Assembly: GCA_963807775.1 (NCBI GenBank)
Contig: CAWECY010000004.1
Span: forward strand, 475,873-539,872
Length of the DNA: 64,000 nt
DNA from: an uncultured Acidimicrobiaceae bacterium
GTDB taxonomy: Bacteria; Actinomycetota; Acidimicrobiia; Acidimicrobiales; RAAP-2
Reading direction: 5' to 3'
This document shows, piece by piece, positions 40,506 through 62,849 of the stretch. The position numbers and the translations under genes were made by a program. Under the pieces are notes generated by a model. The model was given only the letters and a program-made list of their open reading frames with translations, had not been told where the DNA came from and searched no databases. The stretch's first letter is position 1; each line of letters begins with the position of its first letter.

Positions 40506-40689
40506 CGGAGTGCCGCTGAATTCGGCTTCGGTCAGAGGATTCCCGCTCGTCTAATCGTTTCAAATGTCATATTCCGCTCGTGCTTCTCATTTTGGCTCTC
40601 GAACATCGGCGCCCGACGATGAATGTGGGGAAACCGGGTGGAAATGTCCTCGTCGAGCGGCTCGCCGGTCGTCGTCACTTAGAGCCGGC

Positions 40690-41213
40690 CTCTCGTTTCA
40701 TGCGAGACGTCGCACTAGTGGAAATGTACATCGACGCCGTGGTTGACAGATACGGCGAAGCGCGGCGGGCCCTCCTCCGCGACGCGCGCCTTTCCCGAAG
40801 CCACGATTTACGCATTCGAACTGAACGATCGTCAGATAATTTCACGGGACTCGAGACCAGAACACATGGAAAGCGCGTCGTCCTTACGAAGGGTGCCGTG
40901 AGCAACCCGTCGGCACACAAACGCTCTATTCCTCGTCCAACTGACCGAAGCTCAACTCAATCTTTCAACGCGATCCTTTACCACTAGGGATCGAGATGAG
41001 CGATGAGGACAGGTTGACGTAACGACGATCGACGCGTTCTGTGCTCTGCATGAAGTGGATCAGATCGACTTCTTGAAGATCGACGCTGAAGGGGCAGATC
41101 TCGCCGTTCTGGACGGTGCTACTCCGATGCTCGCCGGCCTGAAGATCGGCGCTCCAATTCGCCCTGGGGCCCGTTTGTGTCGATTCTCACACCTTCCTCA
41201 GGGGTTTCCTTGA
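40690..41213 (+). pseudogene. Degraded FkbM-family methyltransferase
   Basis: The clear 3' fragment at 41007-41213 reads GQVDVTTIDAFCALHEVDQIDFLKIDAEGADLAVLDGATPML. Upstream, other frames carry ATIYAFELND (AFEP-like) and VVLTKGAVSN. The SAM-binding glycines are lost. Confidence 0.45.
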
Positions 41214-41367
41214 CGCCCTCGGTCCCTCGTTCCGGTGACTTCTCAAGATGCGCGACCGGCTGCTATCAGTGACCTACTCCGAGAAAAGAGGAAGTCTTCG
41301 CCGTTCGGAACTATTCGGCGCTCCCATCCCCGGCATGACGGGCCTACTGCCGGCGCCCGAGGGCATC

Positions 41368-43491
41368 TCAGCGGTCGTTCAATAGGCTCCGACACAGCGA
41401 CATGTCCGGCGCCTTCGTGTCAACTCGCACCACCGTGACCACTGGTTGCTGACCAGTCGGTGTCGCCGCCGAGTGAACTTCGACCGCCGCCCCGAGCTGA
41501 GACCCCGACAGGACACCGCTTAAGGCAGTGAGGATGCTGCCCACCTGGACGTCCGCGATATGAAGAATCGAATTGGTCTCCACGTGGAGGACGTACGGGT
41601 GTCCGATCTTCGGTACGAATTTCGCCCCGATAATCGGGTAGTGGGGGTCGTGGAGCACGAATCGGACGCTGCCGCCACCAGACGCGCGGATGGAGATCGT
41701 GTCCTTACCGGCCGAGACAATGGGAACGGAGGTGCCAAGTCTCATAGGGGCGTTGAACGTCACTATGAGTTTGGTCTCAAGGCCGGAGCCCTGCTCCACC
41801 GGAATCCACGTGTGGTGTTCTGCTTGCAAGATTGGATCGGTATTGAAGTGATCCCCCGAGGAAAGGTAGAGGCCCGCACAGTCACCGATGATGTACACGT
41901 CGTTCGCGGGTGCCCAATAGGGGAGCGTCGTGGCGTGCTTGAGCTGCTTGTCGTAGGGGTGCCCCGTGACGTCGCTGATCGCTTTGACTGTCTTGATGTA
42001 GTTGGCGGCTTGAGCTGGGAGCCATTCAGTCGTCGGAGAGAAGGCAAGGGCGATGTTGACGGCCATGCTGAAAATTCCGAACACCACAAGTGCCGTAACA
42101 GCGACCCGCCTCACCGCCACGCCGCGATGTTCCAGCCATCCCCACGTTGCAATCAGCCCGATCGCTCCGCCCAGGACAAGGAACGGAAGAAAGTCCCCCA
42201 GATAGCGCGGAGCAATGTATCCCAATAGGAAGTCGACGGCGGTTCCACCGGCAGCCACGATGAGTGGGATCCGCATCAATGTCGCCCCTCGACGCGCGTG
42301 TGGGCGGAAACAAATTACTAAGGCACAACAGCTGAGAAGGAAGAGCAGCGGCATTGAGGCTGGCACGCTGGGAGTCGGGTACAGGACGTCGATGATGTAG
42401 CCGCCGAACACATGAGGGGGCTGCACCGGCAGGGCGAAGAACGGAAAAGTCGGTTGGAGTCGTAGCCCGAAGGGTTGGAAATATGCCCACACGTTTGTGG
42501 GAATGAGGTGAAAGCTGTAGCCCTTTTCGCCAGTGGCGGTCAGAAAGGCCCGCCGATGGGCATTCAGCTGGGTCCACACCTGGTGAGCCAGCGGCAAACC
42601 GTTGAGCAAGGTCCCGAATTTCAGCCAGTTGACAAGGACAGAGACAAGGAAGGGAACCACTGCGATCGCGACCATTGAGGGAGCCCAGCGCCGGTGTTGC
42701 ACTGTGCTACGACCGAAACGGAACCGTCCGGCAATGAGAATGGCACCGACGATGCACGCCAGCGCCGGCGTCGGACGGTCCAGGACGCCAGCCAGAATGA
42801 GTGCGCCTGCGGCCAGTACCCGATGCTTCGTCGGATGATCGAGAATTCCGATAAATACGAAGAGTGTGGCGATAGTGACCGGAATGGACCACGCAATGTC
42901 TTCGTTGTAGACCCAAGGTGCCGCCGCCAGGAAGAGAAGAACAGAGCCGCCCAGGATCGTGGCGACAAGAACTCCGACTGAGACAGCCTCCCCCCATCCA
43001 AGCAGCGCCCCGCCTCTCAGCAGCACCCGAACGCGCCAAATGAGCAGACTGGAAAAGAACCCCGTGAAGAGCCAGGCCACGAACATCGACGGGGCAGTAA
43101 GTCGGCCGTCCAGCGATGGAATTACGAGGAGAATCGGGATCCGGAACAAGGACGGGAGCAGACCGAAGTAGGTGTAGGTCCGTCCGTCATGGATGAACCC
43201 CTCGATGCCGAGCCGTCCTGTTGGTACCGAGAGGTGACCGTGGATCATCGCCTCGGCCTGGAGATCGTAGAAGTTGGCGAAGAATGATACTGACCGCAAG
43301 GGTTTGACCGTTCCCGACCACTCGTCCGTCAGTATCCAGATGCACGGGACAGCTGCGATGATGGCGCCGATGAGCGCAGCATACGTAAAACGCTTCTTGT
43401 TGCGTTCCTCGCCGCCGCCGCCGCCGCCGCCGCCGCCGCCATCATCGAGTGCGGTGGGCTGGGTGTCCTCCTCAAACGCCACCGCAGACAT
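41368..43491 (-). CDS. Large polytopic membrane protein, family A paralog 1 (putative GT-C-fold glycosyltransferase with a C-terminal extracytoplasmic domain)
   Basis: 707 aa with more than 10 predicted TM helices. First loop FYDLQAEAMIHGHLS...LGIEGFIHDGRTYTYFGLLPSL. The beta-rich C-terminal roughly 200 aa are non-hydrophobic. By eye it is about two-thirds identical to 44537..46720. Confidence 0.7.
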   Translation of the reverse strand: MSAVAFEEDTQPTALDDGGGGGGGGGGEERNKKRFTYAALIGAIIAAVPCIWILTDEWSGTVKPLRSVSFFANFYDLQAEAMIHGHLSVPTGRLGIEGFIHDGRTYTYFGLLPSLFRIPILLVIPSLDGRLTAPSMFVAWLFTGFFSSLLIWRVRVLLRGGALLGWGEAVSVGVLVATILGGSVLLFLAAAPWVYNEDIAWSIPVTIATLFVFIGILDHPTKHRVLAAGALILAGVLDRPTPALACIVGAILIAGRFRFGRSTVQHRRWAPSMVAIAVVPFLVSVLVNWLKFGTLLNGLPLAHQVWTQLNAHRRAFLTATGEKGYSFHLIPTNVWAYFQPFGLRLQPTFPFFALPVQPPHVFGGYIIDVLYPTPSVPASMPLLFLLSCCALVICFRPHARRGATLMRIPLIVAAGGTAVDFLLGYIAPRYLGDFLPFLVLGGAIGLIATWGWLEHRGVAVRRVAVTALVVFGIFSMAVNIALAFSPTTEWLPAQAANYIKTVKAISDVTGHPYDKQLKHATTLPYWAPANDVYIIGDCAGLYLSSGDHFNTDPILQAEHHTWIPVEQGSGLETKLIVTFNAPMRLGTSVPIVSAGKDTISIRASGGGSVRFVLHDPHYPIIGAKFVPKIGHPYVLHVETNSILHIADVQVGSILTALSGVLSGSQLGAAVEVHSAATPTGQQPVVTVVRVDTKAPDMSLCRSLLNDR
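43411..43440 (-). repeat. (GCC)10 trinucleotide repeat encoding Gly10 in the N-terminal tail of family A paralog 1
   Basis: Thirty nt of perfect GCC repeat, counted directly. Translated as DDGGGGGGGGGGEE. Absent from the paralog. Confidence 0.95.
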
Positions 43492-61412: not shown

Positions 61413-61850
61413 GCGCCACGGCTGGTGACGGTCAGCCTCACTGTCACCGGCCACGGGCCCAGATCGACACTCTCTCCACATGATCTTGGACGCCGAGATC
61501 GGCGAGCAAGGGATTGAGCCCACTCGACCGGGGGCCGGCTCAACGAGGACGAGGGCAGGGCGGAGGACGATGCTGCCCGAGGACGGTCCACACCGTGATC
61601 TGATCAAGTGGTCGCTGGCAGATACCCAATATTTCAGCCAATGGTTACGAACCGGCCTCTTTGATGTTCGGCGGACCCGGTGCCTCCTGCGTCAATCTCG
61701 AGCTGATGTATCGAACAGATCGATAAGCCAAAGGTTTTATGCCACAAATCGCTCGCCGGGCTTTCAAGATCCTGCGACTTGATTTTCGGAACGGCTAAGG
61801 AGGCAAAATCGACTTTACCGTGTGCCAATCACACCCCAGCGCACCTTAAG

Positions 61851-62726
61851 TTAAGGGCCCTTCTTGTGGAGGCTGGAAGTGGCCCGATGGACCGATCGAC
61901 GCGCCAACGGCCCAACGGCACATGTGGCTCGGCGGGCTTTGAGCAACTCGATGTTCGCGTTCCGAAAGCGCGCAGCAGGAAGCCGAGACTTCACCGTCGG
62001 CCAGTCCCCTTCGATTGTTCCAAGCAACGAATGCTTCGACCCCTCGAGAGCGCTGAACGGCATGGCCATGTAGTGGTTCACGATGTCTTCGAAATTTTCG
62101 CTTAAAACCGTTGAATGTGGATCGAGTCTTCGAACCAATCCTAGCCCCGTTGGAGCAATATCGATGACGGATATGTCCAGGTCGGGACGCCGTTCTCTCA
62201 GAAGCAGGATAAGGCGCCAGACATCTCCACTCCAGATGGTTGTTGCTTGATCCCGAGCCGCGCTGAGCTCGTCGACGGGTAAGCAGTCATGAATCAGAAG
62301 AACAGTCCCGGGAGATGATGCACGTTCGAAGTTGATGAAGTCACGAAGCGCAAACTCGAAGCGATGCATTCCGTCTATGAAACCGAGGTCAAGGGGAAGA
62401 CCGCCAAAAAGTCGCCGGAGGTCATGCTGTGCGAAGAAATCGTCGCTGGTTTGATTGAAGATCCGAGTGCCCCGCCGCAAGGGAAATTGCAGGTTCGGAG
62501 CAGGATCCACACCGATTGACACAGTTCCAGGAAGCGCCAGAGTCAGTGAACGCCCCAACGACACTCCAATTTCTGCGTAGGTTCGCGGAACGAGGTGCTG
62601 ATGGATCTTGTCGAGCAACCCAAAATAGGGCTGCCACGGCGGGATGCGTTGTTCGTATACCCAATCGACGAGTTGCAAGAACAGGATTGTAAGGCCCGGC
62701 GCCATAGGTTTGGCAACTGTCCTCAA
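61851..62726 (-). CDS. Class I SAM-dependent methyltransferase (Methyltransf_24-like)
   Basis: YAEIGVSLGRSL...VSIGVDP...LGFIDGMHRFEFALRDF...VLLIHDCLP. Confidence 0.7.
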   Translation of the reverse strand: MRTVAKPMAPGLTILFLQLVDWVYEQRIPPWQPYFGLLDKIHQHLVPRTYAEIGVSLGRSLTLALPGTVSIGVDPAPNLQFPLRRGTRIFNQTSDDFFAQHDLRRLFGGLPLDLGFIDGMHRFEFALRDFINFERASSPGTVLLIHDCLPVDELSAARDQATTIWSGDVWRLILLLRERRPDLDISVIDIAPTGLGLVRRLDPHSTVLSENFEDIVNHYMAMPFSALEGSKHSLLGTIEGDWPTVKSRLPAARFRNANIELLKARRATCAVGPLARRSVHRATSSLHKKGP

Positions 62727-62849
62727 CGAAGTGCTCTGGCCACCAAGGGGACGAAGGACGGGAACTCGTGCACCCCGTTCCGCTGGATCTATAACGGCGA
62801 GCTTCTACGAGTCGCGTAACCTGGGAGAGGACGAGGATTGCCCCCGGCC

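Follow-up and report, generated by a model that had tools for sequence, protein, structure and literature searches.

What is built by a stretch of actinobacterial DNA in which five large polytopic membrane proteins are encoded beside two glycosyltransferase family 2 (GT2) enzymes, methyltransferases, an oxygenase and an acyltransferase? The question is raised by positions 40506-62849 of the window (the whole stretch of DNA that was analysed, 64,000 nucleotides of contig CAWECY010000004.1, assembly GCA_963807775.1, from an uncultured Acidimicrobiaceae bacterium), for which a preliminary description had proposed an undescribed extracytoplasmic glycosylation system. Acidimicrobiia are abundant, mostly uncultured actinobacteria of soil and water, and their cell envelope is essentially uncharted; a literature search on their envelope glycans and on DUF6541 and DUF7657, two domains that appear below, found nothing relevant. 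Our answer, to which we give a probability of about 0.68, is that the stretch forms the variable half, lower in G+C, of a locus of at least 40 kb for a cell-envelope glycan, and that the enzymes encoded in it transfer polyprenyl-phosphate sugars outside the cell onto a polysaccharide. The genes listed in the preliminary description were all recovered where it had placed them, and they fall into three modules. Module 1 (49.4-41.4 kb, minus strand) holds a GT2-methyltransferase fusion (GT2-MT), a 2-oxoglutarate (2OG) oxygenase, the membrane protein A2, a methyltransferase and the membrane protein A1; module 2 (49.9-56.8 kb) holds the membrane proteins B1 and B2 together with genes and remnants of the Acyl_transf_3 type (AT3); and module 3 (57.3-61.3 kb) holds a YfhO-like gene, a GtrB-type GT2 gene and a methyltransferase (Table 1).

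The paralogs A1 and A2 represent family A, which has no match in Pfam or NCBIfam at E <= 0.01, and for which a profile of 40 sequences searched against the PDB sequences found nothing better than an unrelated protein at E 1.6. It was structure prediction that placed the family. The AlphaFold2 model of A1 (pLDDT 87.7, pTM 0.88), compared with the PDB by Foldseek, matches the oligosaccharyltransferase STT3 first (8pn9_A, 7e-5), followed by AftA, DPY19 and EmbA/B, and all matches of its membrane domain with a probability of 1.0 are glycosyltransferases of fold C (GT-C), at TM-scores of 0.34-0.40. Additionally, the loop between the first (residues 25-55) and the second (111-123) transmembrane helix carries D76, conserved in at least 90% of the family, and E97, which is invariant. 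GT-C enzymes hold their catalytic carboxylates in the loop after the first transmembrane helix. Judging from the model, family A consists of GT-C-fold proteins, with D76 and E97 as putative catalytic residues and a lipid-phosphate sugar as the putative donor.

A second domain of A1, a C-terminal β-sandwich of ~180 residues, finds CBM66, galectin and pentraxin in Foldseek and contains two cysteines, C538 and C700, that are invariant across the family, which fits an exported domain. On this structural likeness, the domain probably binds the acceptor glycan. DNA repeats 3199 nt apart mark A1 and A2 as a tandem duplication, after which the two copies have diverged unevenly: they share 62-75% identity in the membrane and catalytic part and 25% in the β-sandwich, which suggests different acceptor sites or linkages. 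Domains of family A also occur fused to other glycan-acting enzymes. In four proteins from separate 50%-identity clusters (P0412, P0418, P0445 and P0463; 1048-1128 aa) the family-A domain stands behind an AT3 domain, and in a protein of 2175 aa (P0470) it follows an AftD-type GT-C with an F5/8-type-C module. The family is large, with 2,585 clusters at 50% identity reached at E <= 1e-3 and 1,000 at E <= 1e-30.

B1 and B2 represent family B, of which at least 278 homologs were found. As with A, neither the proteins nor a 40-sequence profile gave a significant match in Pfam, NCBIfam or the PDB sequences; a DUF6541 match of B2 is weak (25.8 bits, below the cut-off of 29), and an hhalign comparison of A with B returned a probability of 3%, i.e., no detectable sequence relation. 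The AlphaFold2 model of B1 (pLDDT 82.8, pTM 0.84) matches, each with a Foldseek probability of 1.0, AglB (7e9s_A, 1.2e-5), AftD, PglB, STT3, DPY19, AftA (TM-score 0.51) and ArnT (TM-score 0.5), with Emb and Pmt4 as further high-probability GT-C matches. D48, at the start of the first external helix, is conserved in at least 90% of the family. Family B is therefore also modelled as a GT-C-fold family, in which D48 has a putative catalytic role. The preliminary description had called these proteins GT-C-like, and this point stands: the Foldseek matches of A and B at probability ~1 are all GT-C enzymes, and transporters appear only at ~0.2 or below. The lack of any Pfam, NCBIfam or PDB sequence match leaves the two undescribed at the family level.

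The genomic setting of family B is less uniform. Glycan clusters make up three of the six neighbourhoods sampled, with WecA-like, DegT, CysDNC, AftD-like, YfhO, AT3 and sulfotransferase genes; the other three are housekeeping regions, and one adjoins a PMT_2 GT-C gene. By analogy, such scattered genes resemble the GT-C genes of mycobacteria, which take their sugars from one common donor pool. Two family-B loci (L080 and L081) have at their edge a YfhO-annotated gene (PF09586) other than that of the window. About one third of the sampled family-B proteins (P0135, P0138, P0155 and others) end in a Big_7 bacterial immunoglobulin (Ig) domain, which B1 and B2 lack.

The setting and the structural matches of B bear on an alternative that we consider improbable, namely that some of the polytopic proteins, B especially, are en-bloc transferases, ligases or polymerases that take a glycan linked to polyprenyl pyrophosphate, for instance the one exported from the neighbouring ATP-binding cassette (ABC) transporter locus, and join it to its final acceptor or lengthen it there. 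The nearness of that locus and the inconsistent linkage of B to GT2 or GtrA genes are what such enzymes would lead one to expect, and AglB, PglB and STT3, the best structural matches of B and A, do use pyrophosphate-linked oligosaccharides; yet the monophosphate-donor enzymes AftA, AftD and ArnT match B at equal or higher TM-scores (0.48-0.51), GtrA and GT2 genes, the signature of monophosphate-sugar donors, are in tight linkage with family A, and scattered B genes fit the mycobacterial pattern of many GT-C enzymes on one donor pool (PMC3485146). An oligosaccharyltransferase WWDxG motif was not seen on inspection of the family-B consensus, in which the conserved C-terminal motif IGGYGW has no aspartate and a WW pair (W131, W134/W135) falls in the membrane region. 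For B as for A, we prefer the transfer of polyprenyl-phosphate sugars.

Table 1. Features of the low-G+C stretch and its borders, in window coordinates (GC3, G+C content at third codon positions; cut-offs are those of the profile named)
Feature	Coordinates	Strand	Evidence and remarks
Adjacent core-G+C glycan locus	23132..40505	.	Pfam: GT4 and GT2 glycosyltransferases, methyltransferases, sulfotransferase, ABC-transporter ATPase
cl5 protein, N-terminal domain without assignment plus degenerate methyltransferase	38013..39488	-	Outside the low-G+C stretch; GC3 core-like
FkbM-type methyltransferase remnant, left boundary	41007..41210	+	PF05050 2e-9, profile positions 97-132 of 173 only
A1, family-A GT-C-fold membrane glycosyltransferase candidate, 707 aa	41368..43491	-	AlphaFold2 and Foldseek; C-terminal lectin-like or carbohydrate-binding-module-like β-sandwich, ~residues 520-700
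Class I S-adenosylmethionine methyltransferase (Methyltransf_11) between A2 and A1	43572..44342	-	Pfam E 8.8e-9
A2, paralog of A1, 727 aa	44537..46720	-	59% identical to A1 overall
Prolyl-hydroxylase-like Fe(II)/2OG oxygenase, 291 aa	46941..47816	-	PF13640 1.8e-16, 61.3 bits vs cut-off 27
GT2 (polyprenyl-phosphate-sugar-synthase-like) fused to class I methyltransferase	47895..49358	-	PF00535 7.7e-21; Methyltransf_23 4.4e-15; no transmembrane segment
AT3 membrane O-acyltransferase	49863..51212	+	PF01757 2.1e-23
B1, family-B GT-C-fold membrane glycosyltransferase candidate, 621 aa	51869..53734	+	AlphaFold2 and Foldseek
AT3 remnant, N-terminus only	53824..54267	-	PF01757 positions 4-61 of 326, E 3.4e-6, 26.8 bits, below the curated cut-off of 31 bits
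B2, paralog of B1	54852..56769	-	33% identical to B1 over 551 residues, E 4e-61; one frameshift near 55190
YfhO-like GT-C candidate, ~820 aa	57266..59727	+	PF09586 on C-terminal piece; one frameshift near 58540-58590
GtrB/ArnC/DPMS-type GT2, two C-terminal transmembrane helices	59724..60698	+	PF00535 in N-terminal piece; weak ArnC and PpgS matches; two frameshifts
Class I methyltransferase (Methyltransf_23), downstream of second GT2	60616..61314	+	Pfam E 8.2e-12
Class I methyltransferase (Methyltransf_24)	61851..62726	-	Pfam E 7.3e-9; lowest G+C of the stretch, GC3 0.60
He_PIG Ig-repeat surface protein	62850..64000	-	PF05345 1.8e-14; GC3 0.84; marks right boundary; candidate acceptor

The partners of family A are indicated by its neighbourhoods in other genomes. 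Linkage was assessed in the 77 best family-A loci from a scan of one genome per species, taking the genes within 10 kb and clustering their open reading frames (ORFs); all 77 come from Acidimicrobiales or from unclassified actinomycete metagenome-assembled genomes. A homolog of the 2OG oxygenase (58-71% identity) lies beside A in 57 of them, often immediately upstream on the same strand, and this conserved oxygenase/A gene pair, which had gone unremarked in the preliminary description, is the most informative feature of the locus. GT2 synthase-like genes are present in ~40 of the 77 loci: the GT2-MT fusion in 27-36, where in the nearest third its GT2 domain is 78-89% identical and A itself 43-60%, and a GT2 gene other than the fusion in 13. 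GtrA (PF04138), which in relatives is found next to the oxygenase, occurs in 39 loci; 35 loci have AT3, and 17-19 have YfhO-like genes. Two gene orders recur, namely GtrA, oxygenase, A, cl5 (a protein family discussed below) and GT2-MT, oxygenase, A, and one locus (L007) repeats the layout of the window. The proposed system, which would have lost its footing had the homologs never been linked to polyprenyl-phosphate GT2 genes, therefore survives for family A, given its linkage to both GT2 and GtrA. By comparison, homologs of the methyltransferase between A2 and A1 (69-72% identity) are confined to the six closest loci. A polytopic membrane family of ~525 aa without a Pfam match (cl6; e.g., 17029-18609 on the minus strand of L014) stands beside A in 22 loci and is absent from the window; it may be another unannotated glycan-acting membrane enzyme.

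Within the window, a promoter and terminator scan found no terminator-like sites in the intergenic gaps of the A genes, a result compatible with the earlier view of the minus-strand run as one operon, though not a demonstration of it. The fusion at its upstream end resembles dolichol- and polyprenyl-phosphate sugar synthases, in agreement with the type first assigned to it: its best NCBIfam matches are AglJ (66.6 bits, 2e-18; cut-off 325) and PpgS (51.3 bits, 1e-13; cut-off 370), its PDB matches are DPMS 5mlz (4e-11) and, for the other half, the methyltransferase 3cc8 (1.6e-18), and archaeal dolichol-phosphate sugar synthases and PpgS come nearest to its GT2 domain. The fusion has no membrane segment, as is the case for catalytic domains that depend on a small partner in the membrane, such as Ppm1-D2 and PpgS/Rv3632 (PMC3485146). 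On homology, both GT2 genes of the window are putative polyprenyl-phosphate sugar synthases. As the preliminary description had remarked, no GtrA-type flippase accompanies them: neither tblastn nor a hidden Markov model search of the six-frame translation (E <= 10) found a GtrA homolog in the 64-kb window.

The oxygenase encoded between the fusion and A belongs to a family of more than 3,700 members, in 25 of which, when aligned, H136, D138, H202 and R216 are invariant, giving the HxD...H iron triad and the 2OG-binding arginine. Its family profile finds OGFOD1 (1.3e-10), HIF-P4H and prolyl 4-hydroxylases as the nearest structures in the PDB. Members of the family also stand in a Sinorhizobium meliloti exopolysaccharide cluster on pSymB (L078, 6944-8639), where the gene adjoins a class I methyltransferase, a GT2 and a polysaccharide deacetylase, and in a plasmid cluster of the cyanobacterium Allocoleopsis (L079, 6956-7783) with a flippase, glycosyltransferases and a tyrosine kinase. 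The identity of these family members is 34-46%, and both clusters are devoid of family A. A pairing of the oxygenase with a methyltransferase recurs in glycan loci across phyla. Rv3633 of Mycobacterium tuberculosis (291 aa), which lies beside PpgS and Rv3632 and is listed in papers as a hypothetical protein only, may be another homolog; if so, the synteny of GT2, GtrA-like and oxygenase genes would reach into mycobacteria.

What the oxygenase modifies separates two further readings of the locus. One is protein O-glycosylation, in which the oxygenase would hydroxylate a surface or secreted protein (e.g., the He_PIG protein) before export, and the GT-C enzymes would glycosylate it outside the cell, like Pmt or PgfM1/M2. 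Protein prolyl hydroxylases as the closest relatives of the oxygenase with a solved structure speak for it, as do the protein oligosaccharyltransferases and DPY19 among the top Foldseek matches of A and B, the Big_7 Ig domains on some B homologs, the Ig-repeat surface protein that abuts the low-G+C stretch, and a weak match of the YfhO-like C-terminus to PgfM2/PgfM1, glycosyltransferases of the Streptococcus Pgf family. The Pgf system of Streptococcus glycosylates surface adhesins. Nonetheless, no conserved candidate acceptor protein recurs beside A in the 77 loci, the C-terminus of A is lectin-like or carbohydrate-binding-module (CBM)-like and its fusion partners, AT3 and AftD, act on glycans, and the consensus of B, on inspection, has no WWDxG. 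Moreover, the presence of the oxygenase family in the Sinorhizobium and cyanobacterial exopolysaccharide clusters, where A is absent, favours glycan chemistry over protein hydroxylation. Glycosylation of hydroxyproline was down-weighted on two of these grounds, the oxygenase in clusters without A and the lack of an acceptor protein that co-occurs with A, and we hold protein O-glycosylation to be unlikely.

The other reading concerns the conserved trio of GT2-MT, oxygenase and A, with GtrA in relatives. These genes could constitute a donor-tailoring system, in which the sugar is methylated and/or oxidised on its carrier, or hydroxylated to create an attachment point, and is then flipped and transferred by a GT-C enzyme with a lectin domain. 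We offer this tentatively, as an unlikely reading.

In module 3, the YfhO-like gene ends with a stop codon that overlaps the start of the GT2 gene, as in the classical pairing of a synthase with its GT-C enzyme. The YfhO assignment made in the preliminary description is borne out by Pfam, where the C-terminal piece of the protein scores 42.8 bits against a cut-off of 28.5 for PF09586, a match that covers the last 70 profile positions only. The same piece gives the weak PgfM2/PgfM1 match, the N-terminal piece has a weak match to DUF7657, and both are collinear with intact relatives of 777-863 aa.

The division of the YfhO-like gene into two pieces is one of four frameshifts that the preliminary description had not reported: one in B2, one in the YfhO-like gene and two in the second GT2. 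The latter reads through once a C is inserted into the CCCC run at ~60080 and a base is taken out somewhere in 60321-60400. These two indels are opposite in sign and ~270 bp apart, with only the segment between them out of frame, so that they may be two assembly errors or a compensated mutation. The change of frame in B2 also has a G/C-run context. Since this pattern is typical of homopolymer errors in long reads, and many of the related genomes are long-read metagenome bins, the frameshifts are weak evidence for pseudogenes.

The frameshifts nevertheless admit the possibility of a locus in decay and mostly without function, left as a recombination scar where a variable glycan region is losing genes. 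Besides the four frameshifts, spread over B2, the YfhO-like gene and the second GT2, this would account for the FkbM remnant, for at least one AT3 remnant and for the missing flippase. We consider it very unlikely: long, unbroken ORFs make up the entire A operon and also encode B1, AT3 and the methyltransferases; the single indel with a base-exact position falls in a CCCC homopolymer and the change in B2 in a G/C run, which is the usual signature of long-read assembly error; and the +1 and -1 changes in the second GT2 give back a full-length protein. A functional locus that decorates a polysaccharide thus remains the preferred reading.

Composition was measured by a 1-kb G+C profile and by the GC3 of each ORF. 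G+C amounts to 67.6% at 1-40505, 59.3% at 40506-62849 and 64.6% at 62850-64000, and the median GC3 is 0.83 in the core (n=12 genes), 0.87 in the upstream glycan locus (n=15) and 0.69 in the stretch (n=13), which differs from the others with a Mann-Whitney p of 1e-6. The drop after position 40505 that had been reported from spot counts (73% versus 52-57%) is therefore real at the boundaries first drawn, in G+C as well as in GC3, although the measured contrast is smaller. Past the right edge, GC3 is back at 0.84 in the He_PIG gene. Inside, the stretch is a mosaic, with G+C fractions of 0.55-0.58 at 43-51 kb, 0.60-0.62 at 51-59 kb, 0.635 at 59-61 kb and 0.566 at 62-63 kb.

The preliminary description had suggested horizontal acquisition followed by rearrangement, citing pseudogenes of FkbM, acyltransferase and transposase type. 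The FkbM and AT3 remnants are supported, and a possible second AT3 fragment at 53735-53965 (plus strand) resembles the intact AT3 N-terminus by eye only and has no Pfam match; the transposase-like sequence was not detected. More broadly, of the features expected of a mobile island only the compositional break is present: no transposase or integrase was found among the scanned ORFs and gap segments of the window, and neither a tRNA target nor flanking direct repeats at the low-G+C stretch. G+C troughs recur at homologous loci (55-60% against 68-72% in L001 and L007), and the module genes of relatives lie 2-3 points under the G+C of their own locus. Furthermore, cl5 homologs (37-46% identical to the window gene) accompany family A in 25 loci, in many of which they directly follow it as its usual downstream neighbour, and in the window the cl5 gene (491 aa, against ~690 aa in relatives, of which the N-terminal domain takes ~450 aa) sits downstream of A1 on the same strand, beyond the left edge of the stretch. 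The conserved order of A and then cl5 means that synteny spans the left compositional boundary. With no mobility genes, synteny across the left edge and troughs in relatives, the low-G+C stretch has the appearance of a hypervariable segment within a resident surface-glycan locus; like O-antigen loci, it has probably been swapped between related lineages by recombination. Horizontal acquisition with later rearrangement is plausible and unproven, and the evidence looks more like allelic replacement within a conserved glycan locus than like insertion of a foreign island.

The core-G+C part of that locus, upstream of the stretch, probably makes the backbone glycan. Beside its ABC transporter it encodes a sulfotransferase and several methyltransferases, and CysD/CysN/CysC with further sulfotransferases are found in family-A and family-B loci of relatives (L004, L017, L037 and L080); these Acidimicrobiia may make sulfated, methylated wall glycans. 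The glycan region as a whole is flanked by core metabolism, with a phosphoketolase (XFP) at 11976-14399 and a thiolase with a ChsH2-like OB-fold protein at 16946-19602, both on the minus strand. Thiolase and KAS III genes also flank the family-A loci of ~22 relatives, which suggests a conserved chromosomal neighbourhood.

Taken together, the modules could work as follows. At the cytoplasmic face, the GT2 enzymes, going by their homologs, would transfer a sugar from a nucleotide sugar to polyprenyl phosphate, and the fused methyltransferase and the adjacent oxygenase might, as fusion and synteny would have it, tailor this sugar or its precursor in the cytoplasm, the most speculative step. The lipid-linked sugar would then be flipped, by GtrA in relatives and here by a flippase that is either missing or encoded elsewhere. 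Outside, A1, A2, B1, B2 and the YfhO-like enzyme would move it onto a wall-associated polysaccharide, the likely acceptor being the glycan of the neighbouring ABC-transporter locus, with the lectin-like domain of A selecting the acceptor site. AT3 and the remaining methyltransferases would add acyl and methyl groups.

Several points weigh against this reading. Neither GT2 meets any NCBIfam equivalog cut-off, and GT2-MT is without a membrane anchor; a flippase, GtrA or any other, could not be recognised in the 64-kb window; and family B lacks a consistent linkage to GT2 or GtrA genes, half of its six sampled neighbourhoods being housekeeping regions. Three of the seven key genes are frameshifted and, if the frameshifts are real, modules 2 and 3 are partly dead. 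The Foldseek TM-scores of A and B are modest (0.34-0.51), a range that, for models such as these, is to be expected between distinct GT-C families, and the top matches are oligosaccharyltransferases with pyrophosphate-linked oligosaccharide donors. Finally, the analysis shows the fold, the conserved loop residues, the gene linkage and the fusions, and from these the donor, the acceptor and the chemistry, with the roles of the oxygenase and the methyltransferases, are inferred.

Should the reading hold, the locus points to putative mycobacterial-style surface glycans in Acidimicrobiia, built with many extracytoplasmic GT-C enzymes, and the pairing of A with the oxygenase and GT2-MT provides a testable hypothesis for a new donor- or acceptor-tailoring step. 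Biochemical confirmation would make A and B each the founder of a new GT family in CAZy and would widen the diversity of three-component systems. If the donor is indeed tailored, lipid-linked donors of a new chemical class would result, and the oxygenase would be the first of the 2OG type within a three-component system.

Among the closest known systems is that of PpgS (Rv3631), Rv3632 and Rv3779, which decorates arabinogalactan with galactosamine in Mycobacterium and Corynebacterium (PMC3485146, PMC9671496). Like the locus described here it is actinobacterial, and it combines a soluble or peripheral GT2, a small GtrA-like partner and a GT-C that adds a sugar to a wall polysaccharide outside the cell (PMC3485146, PMC9671496). 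PpgS is moreover among the best NCBIfam matches of the window GT2, and relatives have GtrA beside the module. In contrast, at 51 bits against a cut-off of 370 the window GT2 is no PpgS equivalog, and it is fused to a methyltransferase; its GT-C partner, family A, matches no described family and bears a lectin-like domain; and the module includes a 2OG oxygenase, with no GtrA in the window.

The GtrA/GtrB/GtrC and CsbB/GtcA/YfhO systems, which act on O antigens and teichoic acids, share the combination of a GT2 synthase with a GT-C enzyme, most visibly in the overlap of the YfhO-like and GT2 genes at 57266-60698. They differ in that the window brings together, in a single locus, several GT-C enzymes from three families without sequence relation, that methyltransferase, oxygenase and acyltransferase genes are interleaved with these, and that GtrA is in the loci of 39 of the 77 relatives and not in the window. 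A GtrA-dependent cluster of Actinoplanes likewise contains AT3, a methyltransferase and an unannotated protein with 11 transmembrane segments (PMC13390465).

Another counterpart is the GT136 system of Citrobacter youngae, in which a polyprenyl-phosphoribose synthase, a MATE flippase and a GT-C with a CBM decorate O antigens made by an ABC-transporter pathway (PMC11127046). The two have in common decoration after polymerisation, a GT-C with an extra carbohydrate-binding module, auxiliary enzymes for the lipid-linked donor and loci with multiple GT-C genes (PMC11127046). The likeness of A to GT136 is one of architecture, and the systems part in their synthases (GT2 in the window, a UbiA-like phosphoribosyltransferase in GT136), in their flippases and in their auxiliary enzymes, which are a 2OG oxygenase and methyltransferases here and epimerases there.

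The mycobacterial enzymes EmbA/B/C, AftA-D, PimE and MptA-C offer a further parallel: many GT-C enzymes act on one or two lipid-linked donors, and their genes are partly clustered and partly scattered. Emb and AftD also end in a CBM; AftA and AftD belong to the best structural matches, and one protein joins a family-A domain to AftD. Unlike in mycobacteria, there is no UbiA/DprE-type pathway for an arabinose donor among the scanned ORFs of the window, and no sequence homology to these GT-C enzymes is detectable. Arabinogalactan is not known from Acidimicrobiia.

In light of these systems, the preliminary description's view that five GT-C enzymes with only two synthases are unusual does not hold, as both mycobacteria and the endoplasmic reticulum run many GT-C enzymes on a single lipid-linked donor (PMC3485146, PMC11127046). 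The type of system is already well established, and both GT-C decoration of ABC-transporter glycans and multi-GT-C loci have been described (PMC11127046). What the Acidimicrobiaceae locus adds to it are two GT-C families that no database names, the architecture of A with its lectin domain, to which the divergence of the paralogs is confined, the fusion of a GT2 to a methyltransferase, and a 2OG oxygenase as a conserved member.

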